IMG/VR virus record: IMGVR_UViG_2563366941_000005
Length of the DNA: 34,670 nucleotides
Reading direction: 5' to 3' (one strand)
Source: a virus
Lineage: Duplodnaviria > Heunggongvirae > Uroviricota > Caudoviricetes
Below, piece by piece: positions 9,623-32,497 of the stretch (within the stretch, counting starts at the first letter, position 1; each line of letters begins with the position of its first letter). The notes beneath the pieces were generated by a model. That model ran no database searches, was not told the DNA's origin, and was given only the letters and a program-made list of their open reading frames with translations. Both the position numbers and the translations under genes were made by a program.

Positions 9623-9893
9623 TTCTGCAATTCCGGGACGTTACACTGTTCAGGCACCTTATAAAGCGGGTGCCGGGATTGGCGTCCTGAAATTCGCACA
9701 TGCGCATAACCGCGCTTCAGCGGTTTTTTTGCGCACGTTTCCTCACATCCAAATTATGGTGGGGCGTGCAGGGGCATCGAAAGATGCGCCGGGGTCATGT
9801 GCGACCGGTTACGCCAACCCTGTACGTCTCACCACCTCTGTGATTGGCGTCCCATGTGGTGAGTTTTCAAAATTCGCACATGAGGATGTCACT

Positions 9894-15326: not shown

Positions 15327-15698
15327 ATGCGTGATATTCAAATGGTTCTTGAACGTTGGGGGGCATGGGTGGCAAATAATCACGAGGATGTGGAATGGTC
15401 ATCTGTTGCTGCAGGTTTTAAGGGATTAATTCCTTCGAAAGTAAAATCCCGCCCGCAATGTAGCGATGACGATGGCCTGATCATTAGCTCTGCGATGACA
15501 GTTCTTAAGAAAAAGGAACCGTATCAATACGAATTACTGGAAATGTATTATGTGTATGGGGTTACATTACGGGTGTTGGGGGTAAAACTGGGGATATCAC
15601 TTAATCAGGTTGTTATCAGACTGCAGAAAGCTGAAGGGTTTATTGACGGTTGTCTGGCAATGTTGGGGGTATCTTTAGAAATTGATTGTTACATATAG
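15327..15698 (+). CDS. Q: Late-gene antiterminator Q
   Basis: MRDIQMVLERWGAWV N-terminus typical of the phage antitermination Q family; GGAG SD; immediately upstream of the late region. Confidence 0.7.
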   Translation: MRDIQMVLERWGAWVANNHEDVEWSSVAAGFKGLIPSKVKSRPQCSDDDGLIISSAMTVLKKKEPYQYELLEMYYVYGVTLRVLGVKLGISLNQVVIRLQKAEGFIDGCLAMLGVSLEIDCYI

Positions 15699-15817
15699 TA
15701 ATAAATTCAATCAAAGTAAATAATCATATTTTATTATAACCTCCTGATGATACCTGTTCATTGGTGATGCTGCCAACTTACTGATTTAGTGTATGATGGT
15801 GTTTTTGAGGTGCTCCA

Positions 15818-16093
15818 GTGGCTTCTGTTTCTATCAGCTGTCCCTCCTGTTCAGCTACTGACGGGGTGGTGCGTAACGGCAAAAGCACCGCCGGACATCA
15901 GCGCTATCTCTGCTCTCACTGCCGTAAAACATGGCAACTGCAGTTCACTTACACCGCTTCTCAACCCGGTACGCACCAGAAAATCATTGATATGGCCATG
16001 AATGGCGTTGGATGCCGGGCAACAGCCCGCATTATGGGCGTTGGCCTCAACACGATTTTACGTCACTTAAAAAACTCAGGCCGCAGTCGGTAA
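15818..16093 (+). CDS. insA: IS1 InsA
   Basis: 91-aa [40 protein letters not shown]..., recognised as IS1 InsA. Confidence 0.95.
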
Positions 16094-16515
16094 CCTCGCG
16101 CATACAGCCGGGCAGTGACGTCATCGTCTGCGCGGAAATGGACGAACAGTGGGGCTATGTCGGGGCTAAATCGCGCCAGCGCTGGCTGTTTTACGCGTAT
16201 GACAGGCTCCGGAAGACGGTTGTTGCGCACGTATTCGGTGAACGCACTATGGCGACGCTGGGGCGTCTTATGAGCCTGCTGTCACCCTTTGACGTGGTGA
16301 TATGGATGACGGATGGCTGGCCGCTGTATGAATCCCGCCTGAAGGGAAAGCTGCACGTAATCAGCAAGCGATATACGCAGCGAATTGAGCGGCATAACCT
16401 GAATCTGAGGCAGCACCTGGCACGGCTGGGACGGAAGTCGCTGTCGTTCTCAAAATCGGTGGAGCTGCATGACAAAGTCATCGGGCATTATCTGAACATA
16501 AAACACTATCAATAA
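16012..16515 (+). CDS. insB: IS1 InsB reading frame (transposase made as InsAB-prime by -1 frameshift)
   Basis: 167-aa frame; A6C slippery motif TTAAAAAACTC at about 16066-16076 in the insA/insB overlap. Confidence 0.9.
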
Positions 16516-16551
16516 GTTGGAGTCATTACCCCTGTTCATTGGGAGGTTATT

Positions 16552-17169
16552 ATGGATAAAAATGTAGAGCATGTATTAGTTGATGCAATTGAAAATAAGC
16601 AATCTTTAACAGTCGTTTACTTAGGAGGGAGCCAGCCCGGAACATTAAGGAATATTTCTCCGATTAGTATAAATGGGGATAAATTGCGGGCAAGATGCCA
16701 TAGTTCTGGAGCAGTAAAGGTTTTCAATCTTGGGAAAATACAGTTACCCAGTGACTCCTGCGCGGTATCTATGCACTATGGAGATTTAGAAGTTAAAGCT
16801 TATGAGACGATGCAGAGCGTAAATGACAACTTTCATGCCCTTTATCCTGAAGGACGATGGGGTGTTGATTTTAATGAGCATCGCTTTGCTTTATTTGATT
16901 TTTTTAAAAACGGGAAACGAAAAAAAACGGCATTTATGGCAATTGAGTTCAGGGAAAGAGATGAAGAGAAAATAATAACAGGTGTAACAATTGATATTGG
17001 TATATCTGGAACAGTGATTTCTGAGAAGTCCCGAATCCCAAAAAGACGACCATGGGTAGTGGTTGGTCCCGAACACGGAGAATACAGTACTTATTCAACT
17101 TTGGACAAGGCTGCTACAGCGTTTTTTGAGAGGCTTTCGTTGATAGCATCCGGCCTGGAAGATAATTGA
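16552..17169 (+). CDS. Hypothetical moron protein (205 aa), unknown function
   Basis: AT-rich ORF with GGGAGG SD directly abutting the IS1 right end; followed by its own intrinsic terminator; no recognisable motif. Confidence 0.6.
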   Translation: MDKNVEHVLVDAIENKQSLTVVYLGGSQPGTLRNISPISINGDKLRARCHSSGAVKVFNLGKIQLPSDSCAVSMHYGDLEVKAYETMQSVNDNFHALYPEGRWGVDFNEHRFALFDFFKNGKRKKTAFMAIEFRERDEEKIITGVTIDIGISGTVISEKSRIPKRRPWVVVGPEHGEYSTYSTLDKAATAFFERLSLIASGLEDN

Positions 17170-17447: not shown

Positions 17448-17645
17448 ATGCTGAAACAGCAGGATATGACAGAAACCGCCAGAGTTGTGTTTGATGAATT
17501 AAGCGTTACCGAACCGGCGACAGTCGGGGAGATTGCGCAGAATACTTACCTTTCACGCGAACGCTGCCAGTTAATACTGACCCAGCTTGTTATGGCGGGT
17601 CTGGCAGACTATCAGTGCGGTTGTTACAGACGCCTTCAGTCCTGA
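17448..17645 (+). CDS. Small winged-helix DNA-binding protein (65 aa)
   Basis: HTH-like segment TVGEIAQNTYLSRERCQLILTQLVMAGL; AT-rich context upstream of the AraC-like gene. Confidence 0.45.
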   Translation: MLKQQDMTETARVVFDELSVTEPATVGEIAQNTYLSRERCQLILTQLVMAGLADYQCGCYRRLQS

Positions 17646-17779
17646 AGGCTTTTTATTTGTGGTGAATGGGCGGCTGGTGGGGGGGCGACACCTGTCAGTC
17701 CTTTGCTTATGTGTTGATGATAATTTACCTTTTGGGGCTATAATTGAGCTAACCAATTGCTAATGAAAGTAAAATTATA

Positions 17780-18493
17780 ATGGCTGTTGTCTGTTCAGTT
17801 ATCATGGTTTGCTCCCCAATTAATATTTTTCTTGAAAAGGATACGTTGTCACTTAAGCCAGGCTCAGTTGTTCTGGCCACCAAATGCATCAGGGAGCTTT
17901 TCCTTATGCATTATGGCAAAGTTAAAATTGTCGATATAAGCGAATCCGTCGTAAGTCAATATCTGGAAAGTCAGCATAAGCTGACGAGGACTCGTCTGAC
18001 TGACATTCCGCTTTACCTGTTGCTGGAACCCAACAATCCTGCGTTGGCTGCGGCTTTAATTACCAGCCAGGGATTTTCCGGAGAGGCCACGGATATGTTT
18101 CTTATGATGGCCTGCCTGTCTCTGTTTGAAACAGATGAACGGATGTCATTGTTTTTAAGTGGATGTTTATCCAGCATAAGTGCCAAAGTCAGGGCGATAA
18201 TTCAGACAGATATATCAGCAAGCTGGACGCTTGGTGCGATTGCTCTACAGTTGCATATGAGTGAGAGTTTGTTAAAGACAAAACTGAAAAATGAAGGGGG
18301 CATGTTCAGTCGCTTGTTGCTGGAAGAGCGGATGCGTGTTGCTGTAAATATGTTATGTTCCCGGCATGGATATGGACAGGCTATAGCAGAAAAATGCGGT
18401 TATTCAAGCAGGTCCTACTTTATTTCTGTATTTCACCGCTATTATGGCTTCCCGCCAGACAGATATGTATCCAGGCAAGGGCTTGATTATTGA
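17780..18493 (+). CDS. AraC-family transcriptional regulator
   Basis: C-terminal AraC-type HTH (WTLGAIALQLHMSESLLKTKLK ... GYSSRSYFISVFHRYYGFPP); low GC; start codon uncertain. Confidence 0.8.
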   Translation: MAVVCSVIMVCSPINIFLEKDTLSLKPGSVVLATKCIRELFLMHYGKVKIVDISESVVSQYLESQHKLTRTRLTDIPLYLLLEPNNPALAAALITSQGFSGEATDMFLMMACLSLFETDERMSLFLSGCLSSISAKVRAIIQTDISASWTLGAIALQLHMSESLLKTKLKNEGGMFSRLLLEERMRVAVNMLCSRHGYGQAIAEKCGYSSRSYFISVFHRYYGFPPDRYVSRQGLDY

Positions 18494-18521
18494 TTTTCAT
18501 CTGATTATTATTTTTTGGCTC

Positions 18522-18597
18522 GGCCCTTTAGCTCAGTGGTGAGAGCGAGCGACTCATAATCGCCAGGTCGCTGGTTCAAATCCAGCAAGGGCCACCA
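18522..18597 (+). tRNA. tRNA with CAU anticodon (Ile2-lysidine type, ileX/ileZ-like; could be scored as Met)
   Basis: 76-nt cloverleaf: acceptor GGCCCTT/AAGGGCC, D arm GCTC/GAGC, anticodon loop CTCATAA, T loop TTCAAAT, encoded CCA. Confidence 0.85.
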
Positions 18598-18604
18598 TCA
18601 CATA

Positions 18605-18681
18605 CCGCCATTAGCTCATCAGGAAAGAGCGCCAGCCTTCGAAGCTGGTTGCGCGGAGTTCGGGTCCCCGAAGGCGGTTCA
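18605..18681 (+). tRNA. tRNA-Arg-like (anticodon UCG), noncanonical
   Basis: D arm GCTC/GAGC, anticodon stem CCAGC/GCTGG with loop CTTCGAA, T loop TTCGGGT; one acceptor and one T-stem mismatch; 3-prime end TCA instead of CCA. Confidence 0.55.
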
Positions 18682-18694
18682 TTATCTGTATCCT

Positions 18695-18771
18695 GCGTTG
18701 TTAGCTCAGCCGGACAGAGCAATTGCCTTCTAAGCAATCGGTCACTGGTTCGAATACAGTAGAACGCGCCA
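18695..18771 (+). tRNA. tRNA-Arg (anticodon UCU)
   Basis: Acceptor GCGTTGT, D arm GCTC/GAGC, anticodon stem ATTGC/GCAAT with loop CTTCTAA, T loop TTCGAAT, encoded CCA; one acceptor mismatch and a G/A at the T-stem closing pair. Confidence 0.65.
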
Positions 18772-18786
18772 CACTTATTTTCCCTG

Positions 18787-18810
18787 GCTCGCTTTTGCGG
18801 GCTTTTTTTT
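18787..18810 (+). terminator. Rho-independent terminator after the tRNA cluster
   Basis: Stem GCTCGC, loop TTTT, stem GCGGGC (one G-U pair), then T8. Confidence 0.7.
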
Positions 18811-19245
18811 AAATGTCTCACAATTCAGGCGGTTGACTGTTGTCTGGTTTGCGGGGAGTTTGTTAAAAGAAACTGGCATGGTGAATCCCCCTGTGCGGAG
18901 GGGCAATCAGCGAGTAGGTATATGGGATAATCGCGGATTCAGGTGCTGGTACTGAATTCACCGGGAGGCACCCGGCACCATGCAATGGCACATAGTGCCA
19001 CTCTCCAGCCCCTCTCCGGAGGGGCTTTCTTGTGGGCAAAAAAAAGCCCGAGTGGGTTCGGGCAACAGCATGAGATATACATTTTTATAATCGAATGGAT
19101 TTTAACCAGAATTCATAAGGCTGCGCAACTGCGCGGTCTTTTTCGAATTGCGGGCTGTCGTCTCTCTTCTGCCATTGTCCTGTAACTTCCGGACTTCAGC
19201 CCGCTCCTTATTTTACTCACAATATTATCCCGGCCGGGAGGATTC

Positions 19246-21207
19246 ATGGCATTTAAACACTATGACGTGGTCAGGGCGGCATCGCCGTCAGACCTTGCGA
19301 AACGACTGACACAAAAACTGAAGGAGGGGTGGCAGCCATTTGGCAGTCCGGTGGCCATCACGCCTTATACCCTGATGCAGGCCATTGCGGCGGAAGGTGA
19401 TGTCACCACACCTGTGGTGGTGAAGCCGTCGGATGGAGAAGGCGCAGTTATCAGCACTACCAGCAACCCGGAGTATTACTTTGTTGTTGCCCTGGCCGGG
19501 CAGTCAAACGGTATGGCGTATGGTGAAGGGCTTCCGCTGCCGGAGACATATGACCGTCCGGACCCGCGTATTAAACAGCTGGCGCGTCGCAGCACTGTCA
19601 CGCCGGGTGGTGCGTCCTGTAACTACAATGACATTATTCCTGCGGACCACTGCCTGCATGATGTTCAGGATTTGAGTAAGTTTTCACACCCGAAAGCCAG
19701 CGCAGCTCAGTATGGATGCGTGGGGCAGGGATTACATATCGCGAAGAAATTGTTGTCGTTTATTCCGGCGAATGCCGGTATTCTTCTGGTTCCGTGCTGC
19801 CGTGGTGGTTCTGCATTTTTGGCGGGCGATGAAGGTACCTTCAGCGAATCCACCGGCGCAAGCGAGACCTCGGCACGCTGGGGTGTAGATAAGCCACTGT
19901 ACAAGGACCTGCTTACCCGTACTCAGGCCGCACTGAAGGCCAACCCTAAAAATATTCTGCTTGCAGTGGTCTGGATGCAGGGCGAGTTTGATTTGAAACA
20001 GGGTGCATACGCCACTCAGCCGGGGCTGTTTGATTCCATGGTGGAAAAATATCGTTCTGACCTGTCGGAATTCGGAGGTCAGTGTCTCGGGGGCTCTCCG
20101 TCATCAGTTCCCTGGATTTGTGGCGACACGACCTACTACTGGAAGCAGACTTATTCTTCGCAATACGATGCGGTGTATGGTGCATATAAGACGAAATCCG
20201 CAAAAAAAATCTTCTTTGTGCCGTTTATGACGGATGAAAACGGGCGAAATGTGGGTACCAACGAGCCGTCAGAAGATCCGGATGTTGCGGATATTGGGTA
20301 TTACGGAGCCGGTGGTCGAACGGACGCCAAAACCTGGACGACGGCTGACCGTAAAACGCATTTTGGATCATGGGCACGTCGTGGGATTATTTCCGACCGT
20401 CTGGCAACGGCGATTCTTGTGCATGCCGGGAGAACCGCTGAATTCATTACCGGAAAACAGCCTGATACGGTGAAGCCCACCGGACCTTCCGGTGAAGGTA
20501 CGGAGAGAGAGCCGGAAGGTCCGGTCAGTAACCGAACCCTGATGAGTCTGCTGGCGTCCGGCGAAGACCTGGCATCACAGGGCTGGCGCTATTATCACAA
20601 ACCGGCGAGCGGAGACAATGTTAACAAAAACATTGCTGAAGCGGTGGTCAGTGATGCGGGGGCTACGGGAGGTAAGGCCCTGCAACTGAATAAACCGGAA
20701 AACCACATCTGGTTTCTGGAGCATGATGCAGCCGGGCAGGGGGCAGAGTTGCTGAAGAAAGGAGGACGTGTGAGCGTACGGTTTAAGTTGCCGGGTTCAC
20801 TGGTGCCGAATCAGTTTGCCCTGGGCATTTACTGGCAGTTGTCGTCCCTGCCGGAGGGAGTGACGCTGGCAGAGGAAGGCAACGACATGCTGATGTCCTT
20901 CTTCCTGCAGACGGATGCGACGAACCTGAACGCGATGCACCACAAGAAGCCGAATGCGAAGCTGGATACGTTCGGGGTCTTTGATAACGGATGGCACACA
21001 CTGGCTTTTGAGTTTGCCGGAAACAACAGCATTCAGGTGACGCCGGTACTGGATGAGAAACGGGGGACGCCGTTCACACTGGTGAAATCTCCGGCATCAG
21101 GGGCGGCGGACAAACTGCAACTGACAGGCATATCAAAGGCGGCGACATATACGCTGCTGATTGACAGTGTGAAGGTGGAAGTGAACAACGCGGATGCCGC
21201 GGCATGA
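19246..21207 (+). CDS. Prophage sialate O-acetylesterase (NanS-p-like; SGNH/SASA hydrolase)
   Basis: 653-aa ORF; GQSN catalytic motif (VALAGQSNGMAYGEG); GGGAGG SD; located between the tRNAs and the lysis genes as in Stx-phage-like prophages. Confidence 0.75.
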   Translation: MAFKHYDVVRAASPSDLAKRLTQKLKEGWQPFGSPVAITPYTLMQAIAAEGDVTTPVVVKPSDGEGAVISTTSNPEYYFVVALAGQSNGMAYGEGLPLPETYDRPDPRIKQLARRSTVTPGGASCNYNDIIPADHCLHDVQDLSKFSHPKASAAQYGCVGQGLHIAKKLLSFIPANAGILLVPCCRGGSAFLAGDEGTFSESTGASETSARWGVDKPLYKDLLTRTQAALKANPKNILLAVVWMQGEFDLKQGAYATQPGLFDSMVEKYRSDLSEFGGQCLGGSPSSVPWICGDTTYYWKQTYSSQYDAVYGAYKTKSAKKIFFVPFMTDENGRNVGTNEPSEDPDVADIGYYGAGGRTDAKTWTTADRKTHFGSWARRGIISDRLATAILVHAGRTAEFITGKQPDTVKPTGPSGEGTEREPEGPVSNRTLMSLLASGEDLASQGWRYYHKPASGDNVNKNIAEAVVSDAGATGGKALQLNKPENHIWFLEHDAAGQGAELLKKGGRVSVRFKLPGSLVPNQFALGIYWQLSSLPEGVTLAEEGNDMLMSFFLQTDATNLNAMHHKKPNAKLDTFGVFDNGWHTLAFEFAGNNSIQVTPVLDEKRGTPFTLVKSPASGAADKLQLTGISKAATYTLLIDSVKVEVNNADAAA

Positions 21208-21923: not shown

Positions 21924-22139
21924 ATGTACCAGATGGAAAAAATCACAACAGGTGTGTCATACACCACGTCAGCGGTGGGAACGGGCTACTGGTTCCTGCA
22001 GTTGCTGGACAGGGTTTCCCCGTCTCAGTGGGCGGCAATAGGCGTGCTGGGGAGTCTGCTGTTTGGGCTGCTGACATATCTGACTAACCTGTATTTCAAA
22101 ATCAGAGAGGACCGTCGTAAGGCTGCACGGGGAGAGTAA
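21924..22139 (+). CDS. S: Holin, pinholin type (phage 21 S-like)
   Basis: 71 aa, two TM segments, dual-start motif MYQMEK, C-terminal [13 protein letters not shown]; precedes a SAR endolysin. Confidence 0.8.
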
Positions 22140-22831: not shown

Positions 22832-23365
22832 ATGAACGCAAAAATCAGATACGGCCTGTCGGCTGCCGTTCTGGCGCTGATTGCCGCTGGTGCGCCTGCG
22901 CCTGACATTCTCGACCAGTTTCTGGATGAAAAGGAAGGTAACCACACCACGGCATACCGTGATGGCGCGGGTATCTGGACCATCTGCCGCGGTGCCATCC
23001 TGGTGGATGGCAAACCTGTCGTTCCGGGCATGAAGTTGTCGAAGGAAAAATGCGACCGGGTTAACGCCATTGAGCGTGATAAGGCGCTGGCATGGGTGGA
23101 GAAAAACATCAGAGTGCCATTGAGTGAACCCCAGAAAGCGGGGATCGCGTCATTCTGTCCGTACAACATTGGTCCCGGTAAGTGTTTCCCGTCGACGTTT
23201 TATAAACGAATTAATGCAGGTGATCGCAGGGGAGCGTGTGAGGCGATTCGCTGGTGGATTAAGGACGGTGGCAGAGACTGCCGTATCCGCTCAAATAACT
23301 GTTATGGTCAGGTATCCCGTCGTGACCAGGAGAGCGCGCTGGCGTGCTGGGGAATCGACAGATAA
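22832..23365 (+). CDS. R: SAR endolysin (T4-lysozyme family with N-terminal signal-anchor-release domain)
   Basis: N-terminal hydrophobic SAR segment YGLSAAVLALIAAGA; catalytic E-8aa-D-5aa-T triad (EGNHTTAYRDGAGIWT). Confidence 0.85.
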   Translation: MNAKIRYGLSAAVLALIAAGAPAPDILDQFLDEKEGNHTTAYRDGAGIWTICRGAILVDGKPVVPGMKLSKEKCDRVNAIERDKALAWVEKNIRVPLSEPQKAGIASFCPYNIGPGKCFPSTFYKRINAGDRRGACEAIRWWIKDGGRDCRIRSNNCYGQVSRRDQESALACWGIDR

Positions 23366-31063: not shown

Positions 31064-31411
31064 ATGGTGACGAAAACCATCACTGAACAGCGTGCGGAAG
31101 TACGTATTTTTGCCGGTAATGATCCGGCTCATACCGCCACAGGCAGCAGCGGGATTTCTTCTGCAACACCGGCTCTGACGCCCCTGATGCTGGATGAAGC
31201 CACCGGGAAACTGGTGGTCTGGGATGGACAGAAAGCCGGTAGTGCGGTTGGCATACTGGTACTGCCGCTTGAAGGCACAGAGACGGTGCTGACCTATTAC
31301 AAGTCGGGGACCTTTGCGACGGAGGCAATCCGCTGGCCTGACAGTGTGGATGAACACAAAAAGGCAAATGCCTTTGCCGGCACAGCCCTGAGTCACGCGG
31401 CTCTGCCGTAA
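31064..31411 (+). CDS. D: Head decoration protein (lambda gpD-like)
   Basis: 115 aa; DPAHTATG ... TPLMLD ... YKSGTF ... AFAGTA matches lambda D. Confidence 0.85.
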   Translation: MVTKTITEQRAEVRIFAGNDPAHTATGSSGISSATPALTPLMLDEATGKLVVWDGQKAGSAVGILVLPLEGTETVLTYYKSGTFATEAIRWPDSVDEHKKANAFAGTALSHAALP

Positions 31412-31468: not shown

Positions 31469-32497
31469 ATGGGATTGTTTACGACCCGCCAGTTACTCGG
31501 TTATACCGAACAAAAAGTGAAATTCCGTGCGCTGTTTCTGGAGCTGTTTTTCCGCCGTACGGTGAATTTCCACACCGAAGAGGTGATGCTGGACAAAATT
31601 ACCGGAAAAACGCCGGTGGCGGCCTATGTCTCCCCGATCGTTGAAGGAAAAGTGCTTCGCCATCGCGGTGGTGAAACCCGCGTGTTACGTCCGGGCTACG
31701 TCAAGCCCAAACACGAATTTAATTACCAGCAGGCGGTTGAGCGCCTTCCTGGTGAAGATCCGGCTCAGCTGAACGACCCGGCCTACCGTCGTCTGCGTAT
31801 CATTACCGATAACCTCAAACAGGAAGAGCACGCCATTGTCCAGGTGGAAGAAATGCAGGCGGTGAATGCCGTGCTGTATGGCAAATACACCATGGAAGGG
31901 GATCAGTTTGATACTGTCGAGGTGGATTTCGGGCGCTCTGAAGGAAATAACATTGAGCAGGCTGACGGTAAAAAATGGTCTGAGCAGGACCGTGATACGT
32001 TTGATCCGACGCATGATATTGACCTCTACTGCGATCAGGCCAGCGGCCTTGTGAATATCGCCATTATGGACGGTACGGTCTGGCGTCTGCTGAATGGCTT
32101 TAAGCTGTTCCGCGAAAAACTGGATACCCGTCGCGGCTCAAATTCACAACTCGAAACGGCAGTGAAAGATCTGGGCGCAGTGGTGTCCTTCAAGGGGTAT
32201 TACGGCGATCTGGCCATTGTGGTGGCGAAAACGTCTTATGTGGCAGAGGACGGTACCGAAAAACGTTATCTGCCGGAGGGCATGCTGGTGCTGGGGAATA
32301 CGGCGGCAGAGGGGATTCGTTGCTATGGTGCCATTAAGGATGCACAGGCGTTGTCTGAAGGAGTGGTGGCTTCTTCCCGTTACCCGAAACACTGGCTGAC
32401 CGTGGGCGATCCGTCCTGTGAATTCACCATGACGCAGTCCGCTCCGCTGATGGTGCTGCCGGATCCGGATGAGTTTGTGGTGGTACAGGTGAAATAA
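31469..32497 (+). CDS. E: Major capsid protein (lambda gpE-like)
   Basis: 342 aa; colinear with lambda E (YVSPIV, PGYVKPKHE, TRRGSNSxLETAVKDLG, MTQSAPLM, DPDEFV). Confidence 0.9.
   Translation: MGLFTTRQLLGYTEQKVKFRALFLELFFRRTVNFHTEEVMLDKITGKTPVAAYVSPIVEGKVLRHRGGETRVLRPGYVKPKHEFNYQQAVERLPGEDPAQLNDPAYRRLRIITDNLKQEEHAIVQVEEMQAVNAVLYGKYTMEGDQFDTVEVDFGRSEGNNIEQADGKKWSEQDRDTFDPTHDIDLYCDQASGLVNIAIMDGTVWRLLNGFKLFREKLDTRRGSNSQLETAVKDLGAVVSFKGYYGDLAIVVAKTSYVAEDGTEKRYLPEGMLVLGNTAAEGIRCYGAIKDAQALSEGVVASSRYPKHWLTVGDPSCEFTMTQSAPLMVLPDPDEFVVVQVK

Follow-up and report, generated by a model that had tools for sequence, protein, structure and literature searches.

The NanS-p proteins of enterohaemorrhagic Escherichia coli (EHEC), such as 933W L0105/z1466, phi24B vb_24B_21/gp84 and the O104:H4 alleles, are sialate O-acetylesterases usually cited as textbook cargo by which a prophage nourishes its lysogen. 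Of the nanS-p alleles, seven from EDL933 and five from O104:H4, some of them from prophages without Shiga toxin (Stx) genes, were reported as active esterases on 9-O-acetylated N-acetylneuraminic acid (Neu5,9Ac2), and nanS-p alleles enable growth on Neu5,9Ac2 and de-O-acetylate mucin glycans (PMC8065619). A 2023 survey found the order Q-stx-nanS-p-S conserved, with allelic diversity across all three nanS-p domains (PMC10462455). In a bioRxiv preprint of 2026, phi24B gp84 was described as an abundant virion protein of ~70 kDa when fresh and processed on storage, with a SISSP motif as the proposed cleavage site; cryo-electron microscopy (cryo-EM) placed residues 2-57, the DUF1737 domain, as a hexamer plugging the central hexon of each T=9 facet, anchored by a loop that bears Tyr42, and the premise of that work is that DUF1737 marks phi24B-like particles (10.64898/2026.04.10.717836). 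Here we analysed a nanS-p-type gene at positions 19246 to 21207 of IMG/VR record IMGVR_UViG_2563366941_000005, a 34,670-nucleotide stretch of Caudoviricetes DNA; this whole stretch is called the window. We consider it fairly probable that the gene encodes a late-expressed, lysis-released, capsid-tethered mucin-sialate O-acetylesterase, anchored by a DUF1737 domain that is matched to the head of its own phage.

The gene and the parts of its product were placed as follows.

19236 to 19242, + strand: Shine-Dalgarno sequence GGGAGGA, strong, 3 nt 5' of the ATG, read directly from the sequence
19246 to 21207, + strand: nanS-p-type gene, an open reading frame (ORF) of 653 aa plus stop, with 100% nt identity to the gene of WP_016230883.1 in E. 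coli 19AR1724
19246 to 19398, + strand: DUF1737 domain, aa 1-51, putative capsid-binding module (PF08410 at aa 3-50, E 9e-16)
19339 to 19398, + strand: variable anchor-loop segment, aa 32-51, FGSPVAITPYTLMQAIAAEG, variant A with Tyr41, aligned with the Tyr42 loop of phi24B
19399 to 19467, + strand: linker 1, aa 52-74, rich in Thr, Pro and Val, gapped and variable in alignments
19468 to 20430, + strand: SASA/NanS-like catalytic domain, aa 75-395 (55% identity to K-12 NanS; 3PT5 match)
19498 to 19509, + strand: Block I GQSN, aa 85-88, with Gln86 of the oxyanion hole and the nucleophile Ser87 (from motif position and the NanS blocks of PMC10792757)
20350 to 20364, + strand: Block V RKTHF, aa 369-373, with catalytic His372 (codon 20359-20361), aligned with His301 in RSSHF of NanS
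20431 to 20631, + strand: linker 2, aa 396-462, rich in Pro, Gly and Glu, variable in the alignment and equivalent to the reported autoproteolysis region of phi24B gp84
20632 to 21204, + strand: C-terminal lectin-like jelly-roll domain, DUF6645, aa 463-653 (PF20350, E 2e-43; 6YP6 match, E 4e-61)

The ORF runs from the ATG at 19246 to a stop codon at 21205-21207 on the + strand, and no in-frame start lies further 5'. In a full-length alignment with the phi24B, 933W and 434 proteins, the window protein has the same three-domain architecture and catalytic blocks as the EHEC NanS-p proteins, and its gene occupies the same slot, with the Q/tRNA block before it and the lysis cassette after it; overall amino-acid identity to NanS-p of the EHEC Stx phages is 60-65%. 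It differs from the EHEC loci in the lack of a stx operon upstream, in a loop of variant A and not B, and in linkers without SSP motifs, and from phi24B in the head of its phage, which is of the lambda gpE/gpD type and not T=9. The SASA-family esterase of phage 434 (CPT_434_71) shares the architecture, the slot (Q, esterase, holin), the type A loop and a lambda-type terminase and portal. It is 55-58% identical to the window protein, with a shorter linker 1, a more divergent C-terminal domain and no tRNA block upstream. Chromosomal NanS (YjhS, 3PT5) of K-12 has 326 aa in a single domain, and its gene lies in the nanCMS operon, beside nanM and nanC; its catalytic domain is 55% identical to that of the window protein, the Block I, II, III and V motifs are identical, and the chemistry (Neu5,9Ac2 to Neu5Ac) is presumed to be the same. 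Unlike NanS, the window protein has 653 aa, an extra DUF1737 and lectin-like domain, and a place in a prophage late operon. It is a paralogue-like relative of chromosomal NanS, not an orthologue.

Loci with homologues of the gene were gathered from IMG/VR and reference phages (253 loci, 185 complete genes). Deduplication on the protein plus 3 kb of downstream DNA gave 146 loci, and the head module was classifiable in 66 of these. Head types came from clustering the downstream ORFs de novo, with a minimum ORF length of 400 aa. The head types, and the loop variants that went with them, are listed here.

Head type LAM, lambda-type, the window's own: 21 loci
Head type P24B, phi24B-type: 18 loci
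Head type H3, gpA-type terminase, lambda-family portal and ClpP-capsid fusion: 19 loci
Head type H4, HK97-like, with TerL_ATPase, PF04860 portal and protease-capsid fusion: 8 loci
Loop variant A (PVAITPYTLMQ): LAM 21, P24B 0, H3 1, H4 7
Loop variant C (PFSSYTDDGAALIQ): LAM 0, P24B 0, H3 18, H4 0
Loop variant B/B' (AGYGAEFIQ): LAM 0, P24B 18, H3 0, H4 1

A Tyr was kept in all three loop variants, and the window carries variant A, the one that goes with lambda-type heads. Phage 434 and the Stx1a phage Stx1_9793 also combined variant A with lambda-type terminase and portal, and a Stx2c phage and another Stx1a phage combined it with H4 heads; no assignment among the four types was possible for the Stx2a phage JNE130812. 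The agreement of each segment with head type was expressed as adjusted mutual information (AMI).

DUF1737 loop, identity clusters: AMI 0.67-0.69
DUF1737 loop, named variants: AMI 0.80
SASA domain: AMI 0.03-0.15
C-terminal domain: AMI 0.18-0.22
Nucleotide level, 3 kb upstream of the gene including the leader: AMI 0.11-0.21
Nucleotide level, first 165 nt of the gene (DUF1737), identity thresholds 0.90/0.95: AMI 0.50-0.68
Nucleotide level, 3 kb between the gene's stop and the head genes: AMI 0.00-0.20

When head labels were shuffled within clusters of aa 75-653, none of 5000 permutations reached the observed AMI (permutation maximum 0.47). Pairs of loci with different heads were up to 100% identical in the SASA domain and in the C-terminal domain, and pairs with the same head went down to 68% identity in SASA and 39% in the C-terminal domain. 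Inside clusters at least 90% identical over aa 75-653, loop and head changed together; the window's own cluster at this level held 10 loci with variant A and LAM heads, 3 with A and H4, and 5 with C and H3. With every distinct combination of aa 75-653 cluster, loop and head entered once, the tally was A-LAM 6, A-H4 4, B-P24B 5 and C-H3 5, with 2 exceptions. Several proteins 94-96% identical overall to the window's carried another loop, variant B' at L035:10001-11950 and variant C at L033:10001-11968, L034 and L039. Chimeras of the L035/L033 kind are direct evidence for swapping of the N-terminal domain.

Linkage or a common phage backbone was considered as the cause of the covariation and rejected, since the flanking DNA is nearly devoid of head-type signal. 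The DUF1737 segment also lies farther from the head genes than do the SASA domain, the C-terminal domain and the lysis cassette. An island of association at DUF1737 argues for selection for a match between anchor and head, i.e. for a functional interaction, and these results suggest that DUF1737 behaves as a head-type-specific module that is functionally coupled to the head. Contrary to the premise that the domain marks phi24B-like particles only, they indicate that DUF1737 is a putative swappable adaptor on several head types. No report of DUF1737 as an adaptor across head types was found in the literature searched.

A divergent homologue in Escherichia phage CMS-2020a (L258:12001-13905, 47% identity) has a fourth kind of DUF1737 loop, FESPNIVEPSKGGPNAYNQ, and belongs to an unusually large element of 109 kb; none of the four head types was detectable within 12 kb of it. 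In phage vB_EcoS-640R1, a stand-alone DUF1737 protein of 67 aa with a variant A loop (L254:6986-7189) occupies the nanS-p slot, with neither esterase nor lectin domain. Either a deletion left it behind, or it is a minimal decoration protein.

Of the first 31 residues, the window protein and phi24B gp84 share all but one in the alignment (L21 vs I21). The loop of the window protein and phage 434, ...PVAITP-YTLMQ..., with Tyr41, is 3 residues shorter than that of phi24B and 933W, ...ALISTAGYGAEFIQ... By Pfam the window's head module belongs to the lambda gpA, gpB, gpD and gpE families; the gpD and gpE members were placed as follows.

31064 to 31411, + strand: head decoration protein of the lambda gpD family (PF02924, E 6e-25)
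31469 to 32497, + strand: major capsid protein of the lambda gpE family (PF03864, E 2e-65), candidate docking partner of DUF1737 variant A as suggested by the covariation

Homologues of the large terminase subunit, portal and major capsid protein of phi24B were looked for in the window and none was found; the partner capsid here is of lambda type and not of the phi24B T=9 type. In the mechanism we favour, DUF1737 would dock the enzyme on the phage's own gpE/gpD capsid, as the covariation and the phi24B cryo-EM preprint suggest. The virion would then display a mucin-sialate esterase together with a lectin, both perhaps shed later through cleavage of the linker. The logic has been likened in the same preprint's discussion to T4 Hoc and T5 pb10, in which a small capsid anchor carries an outward glycan-directed domain, and the window protein is predicted to follow it; the phi24B anchor is hexameric, in contrast to the monomeric binding of Hoc and pb10 (10.64898/2026.04.10.717836). 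Viral haemagglutinin-esterases likewise place an SGNH-fold sialate O-acetylesterase and a lectin on the virus particle (PMC9487903), a likeness in logic for which no sequence relationship is claimed.

A number of points weigh against such an anchoring. The one phage with demonstrated capsid binding is the T=9 podovirus phi24B, in an unreviewed preprint (10.64898/2026.04.10.717836). Binding there is specific to the flat hexon at the facet centre, for which a T=7 lambda-type shell has no counterpart. Apart from its Tyr, the window loop (ITPYTLMQ vs TAGYGAEF of phi24B) is unlike the phi24B loop as well as 3 residues shorter, and the SISSP motif is absent from the window protein. The covariation itself is evidence of functional coupling to the head module, not of physical binding. 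Variant A is common to two head types, LAM and H4, and two of the 66 loci break the rule altogether, L081 with variant A and an H3 head and L132 with variant B and an H4 head; these may be recombinant or defective prophages. AlphaFold2 gave a mean predicted local distance difference test score of 39 and a predicted template modelling score of 0.38 for the full-length protein, from an alignment of 27 sequences whose full-length rows were 81-90% identical. This model was discarded, and the structural evidence for the esterase consists of Protein Data Bank (PDB) sequence matches in its place. The window allele is only 60-65% identical to the NanS-p proteins that were assayed, and its activity is predicted from homology. 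A pR'/qut site was not located by a consensus scan, and an IS1 element at 15763-16530 could be polar on everything 3' of it.

The sample is also phylogenetically narrow, as a species-level genome scan returned no new full-length carriers outside Escherichia, where only single-domain NanS-like genes were found. When the 60-aa N-terminus was used as a query for diverse DUF1737 homologues, almost everything returned was a fragment from E. coli or Shigella. The literature searched contained no virion proteomics on carriers of siphovirus type. With all this taken together, tethering of the esterase to this particular lambda-type head is judged slightly more probable than its absence. The wider proposition is that NanS-p is a modular capsid-decoration enzyme, whose anchor of ~50 residues has been swapped repeatedly to fit at least four heads (lambda gpE, HK97-like, ClpP-major capsid protein fusion and phi24B T=9) and whose esterase-lectin payload is freely exchanged, with the window protein decorating a lambda-type T=7 capsid and giving the virion a mucus-directed sialate esterase. 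We regard this as evenly balanced between true and false.

The enzymatic side of this reading stands on firmer ground. Pfam placed DUF1737 at aa 3-50, SASA (PF03629) at aa 83-274 and DUF6645 at aa 503-616, all three above curated cut-offs (37.0 bits against 24.8 for SASA), and a profile search gave an end-to-end match to PHROG 143. In the PDB sequence search, aa 73-391 matched NanS/YjhS (3PT5, E 2e-117) and aa 464-648 matched the C-terminal domain of NanS-p (6YP6, E 4e-61). NCBIfam has no specific model for the esterase, and a search of its profiles returned only sub-threshold LysJ noise. An earlier note, made from the letters of the window, had described a prophage-borne NanS-p-like SGNH esterase with a GQSN motif, and this description was borne out by the matches above and by the lambdoid prophage context. 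The SASA and DUF1737 profile searches that it proposed as a check were among those run, with both families above cut-off. The ORF and its profile matches are far above chance and the observation is confirmed; the gene is a new allele of an already characterised family, an identification both correct and ordinary. Small ORFs that overlap the gene on either strand had no support and were treated as chance.

Published NanS blocks are GQSNA 17-21, RGGSAF 120-125, MQGEFD 178-183 and R-x-SHFS, with Ser19 and His301 as catalytic residues (PMC10792757). The SASA family is marked by a Gln next to the nucleophile and a (H)QGE Block III, which form an inverted oxyanion hole, and the Block V Asp is not present in NanS (PMC9487903). 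The window protein has the corresponding features of SASA/CE6 SGNH hydrolases, G85-Q-S-N and M244-Q-G-E-F-D (aa 244-249), as well as RGGSAF at aa 186-191, and its aa 67-391 align with K-12 NanS at E 7e-129 with 55% identity. Loss of the catalytic Ser or His in such an alignment would have spoken against the earlier assignment; Ser87 and His372 are both present, and are invariant among 146 distinct homologues. The predicted catalytic apparatus is the full one of NanS, with Ser87, an oxyanion hole of Gln86 and Q245-G-E, His372 as the base and no Block V Asp. Membership of the NanS-p family and sialate O-acetylesterase chemistry are almost certain for this protein on the strength of these motifs. 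By homology to the assayed alleles, the enzyme would remove the 9-O-acetyl group from Neu5,9Ac2 and from O-acetylated mucin sialoglycans, the C-terminal domain would target it to glycans, and the de-O-acetylated sialic acid would become usable through the NanATEK pathway.

When and where such an enzyme acts depends on its expression, for which the following features of the window are relevant.

15327 to 15698, + strand: Q antiterminator gene, intact (PF06530, E 1e-47; RefSeq annotation of the identical region)
18522 to 18771, + strand: tRNA cluster Met/Ile2(CAT), Arg(TCG), Arg(TCT) (ARAGORN and Rfam), 92% identical to the phi24B/933W tRNA block
18847 to 19037, + strand: STnc100-family small RNA in the nanS-p leader between tRNAs and esterase (Rfam RF02076, 137.8 bits, full-length match), ending at the hairpin 19007-19026
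19041 to 19093, - strand: AsxR-like element of the 'anti-stx2' small RNA family (Rfam RF02703, 63.0 bits, exactly the gathering score)
21924 to 22139, + strand: P21-type holin, start of the lysis cassette (PF04971, E 9e-33)
22832 to 23365, + strand: endolysin, a phage lysozyme (PF00959, E 1e-23)

Three terminator-like hairpins, with stems at 17632-17649, 18786-18803 and 19007-19026, lie 5' of the gene, and no sigma-70-like site was predicted on the + strand from 18511 to the ATG at 19246. The N-terminus of the esterase has no hydrophobic, signal-peptide-like stretch (maximum Kyte-Doolittle value of 1.23 over 12 residues in the first 50 aa), which makes export other than via lysis unlikely. From the position of the gene, the hairpins and the lack of a predicted promoter and of a signal-peptide-like stretch, expression is most simply read as Q-dependent and release as holin-dependent. 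The published record of related alleles points the same way, with z1466 among the most strongly induced late genes after norfloxacin (PMC8065619) and induction of nanS-p by mitomycin C running parallel to that of stx2a (PMC10462455). The esterase gene would be co-transcribed with the late genes under Q antitermination, and its product would leave the cell only upon lysis by holin and endolysin. We hold late-operon expression and release by lysis, as read from this arrangement, to be likely.

These results bear on the view that the gene is a pure metabolic moron, whose expression in the lysogen is unconnected with the lytic programme and which feeds the host on O-acetylated sialic acids, with a DUF1737 that has no virion role in this lambda-type phage. 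The nanS-p-dependent growth advantage on Neu5,9Ac2, which extends to non-Stx and possibly defective prophages (PMC8065619), is in keeping with it, as is the retention of an intact gene even in a prophage with IS1 in its late-control region. The gene is also conserved in many genomes: copies at least 99% identical were found in 102 complete-genome records, all E. coli, and 1177 of the 5426 complete E. coli genomes had some homologue, at a median of 3 places in each genome with a match. Near-identical copies came from human isolates in most cases, and the nt-identical gene carries the annotation 'SASA family carbohydrate esterase' in E. coli 19AR1724, which was isolated from a human rectal screen. 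Against a moron stand the lack of a predicted promoter of its own, the three hairpins, the missing signal-peptide-like stretch, the published co-induction with late genes and the finding of gp84 in phi24B virions. It also leaves unexplained why the DUF1737 loop alone, and not the enzyme or the flanks, follows head type. We consider it unlikely. The late operon with its Q dependence, the head specificity of DUF1737 and the cryo-EM of phi24B gp84 instead make it probable that the esterase belongs to the lytic programme and to the virion.

The earlier note had called the gene metabolic cargo with a fitness role for the lysogen outside the lytic cycle. The use of O-acetylated sialic acids agrees with published growth on Neu5,9Ac2 for other nanS-p alleles (PMC8065619); a cargo role apart from the lytic programme, and with it the role outside the lytic cycle, fits poorly with the late-operon position, the hairpins, the absent promoter and signal-peptide-like predictions, the induction-linked expression (PMC10462455) and the head-matched DUF1737. 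A benefit to the lysogen population would more readily take the form of a public good, released by an induced and lysing minority.

An enzyme displayed on the virion could also serve adsorption or egress, by putative removal of O-acetyl groups from bacterial surface polysaccharides such as O-acetylated O-antigen or K1 polysialic acid, which would expose a receptor or prevent trapping of progeny, in the manner of a receptor-destroying enzyme and not of one directed at host mucus. The coupling of DUF1737 to head type is compatible with whatever activity the virion displays, variability among the domains is highest in the C-terminal, carbohydrate-binding one, and alleles 99.7% identical occur in strains such as E. 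coli S88, which we take to be a K1 strain. The possibility was raised in a review; the relatives assayed there, however, act on free Neu5,9Ac2 and mucin glycans (PMC8065619), and a location on the capsid instead of the tail would be unusual for receptor modification. This explanation seems to us quite improbable, and mucin sialoglycans stay the favoured substrate of the capsid-tethered enzyme.

One feature of the window bears on whether this copy is expressed at all.

15763 to 16530, + strand: IS1, 768 bp, absent from 19AR1724, with InsA/InsB Pfam matches on the + strand and junctions read directly

The element is flanked by a target duplication, CCTGTTCATT, at 15753-15762 and 16531-16540, and lies 64 bp 3' of the Q stop codon and 21 bp 5' of the next gene's ATG. 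As it parts Q and pR' from the late genes, this copy might be a silent passenger in a defective prophage, not usefully expressed and a mere recombination reservoir for nanS-p alleles. Mosaic exchange of nanS-p is indeed evident, as in the SASA and C-terminal domains that are 100% identical across loci with different heads, and the IS1 in its place after Q may lower expression of this esterase copy or stop it altogether. Against a silent passenger, the ORF and every motif are intact, and the lysis, terminase, portal and capsid genes are ~99.99% identical to the IS1-free copy, as is the rest of the prophage apart from IS1 when compared with 19AR1724. Q-modified RNA polymerase normally passes terminators, and with such read-through IS1 need not block late transcription. 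The IS1 junction was present in one IMG/VR contig (L006) and in none of 5426 complete E. coli genomes, so the insertion is private to its lineage and probably recent. A passenger role is very improbable, and the late-expressed esterase is retained as the preferred reading.

If DUF1737 anchors the enzyme to the capsid in a head-specific way, the enzyme belongs first of all to the equipment of the virion, and the bacterial benefit is a by-product of lysis. The covariation would extend the anchor idea from the single cryo-EM case to the lambda-type and two further head types, and it renders the question of moron or structural protein directly testable. Were the anchor reading true, the wide carriage of the gene in gut E. 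coli, pathogenic or not, would speak to the behaviour of phages in mucus, and the modularity of anchor and payload would be a natural display system for lambda-type capsids. A virion decorated in this way would be the phage counterpart, in principle, of the viral haemagglutinin-esterases, and would bring an enzyme to mucus adherence of the Hoc type. Fragmentary prophages can also be typed by a simple sequence rule, in which the loop variant indicates the head type.

The gene order of the prophage was taken from the RefSeq-annotated identical region of E. coli 19AR1724 and from Pfam matches of the window proteins. It is a lambdoid prophage adjoining mlrA. The integrase and the early genes come first; Q and three small or regulatory genes follow, then three tRNAs, the esterase, DUF1378 and DUF826, and after these holin, endolysin, Rz and the head genes. 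The tRNA block (18518-18809) and the conserved nanS-p leader (18814-19260) are directly joined in the window, unlike in 933W, where ~1.3 kb lies between them at the position of the stx2 operon. This contiguity makes the prophage a stx-less counterpart with an empty stx site, which falls exactly at 18809-18814. The AsxR-like match sits in a prophage that has no stx genes. The first tRNA (18522-18597) was called Met(CAT) by ARAGORN, and the identical gene is annotated as tRNA-Ile in RefSeq; a lysidine-modified Ile2, like the phi24B tRNA annotated as AUA-reading, would fit.

Between Q/IS1 and the tRNAs, ORFs of 205 aa (16552-17169) and 65 aa (17448-17645) had no Pfam match. They are followed by a gene for an AraC-family regulator of 237 aa (17780-18493), preceded by a promoter-like site at 17717-17744 with 10/12 matches. 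Prophage AraC-like regulators affect host virulence and acid-resistance genes. In the early/immunity region, adjoining Rfam matches to isrK (RF01394, 62.3 bits) and C4 antisense RNA (RF01695, 75.1 bits) at 9654-9839 on the + strand suggest a putative antirepressor control module of the P1/P7 type.

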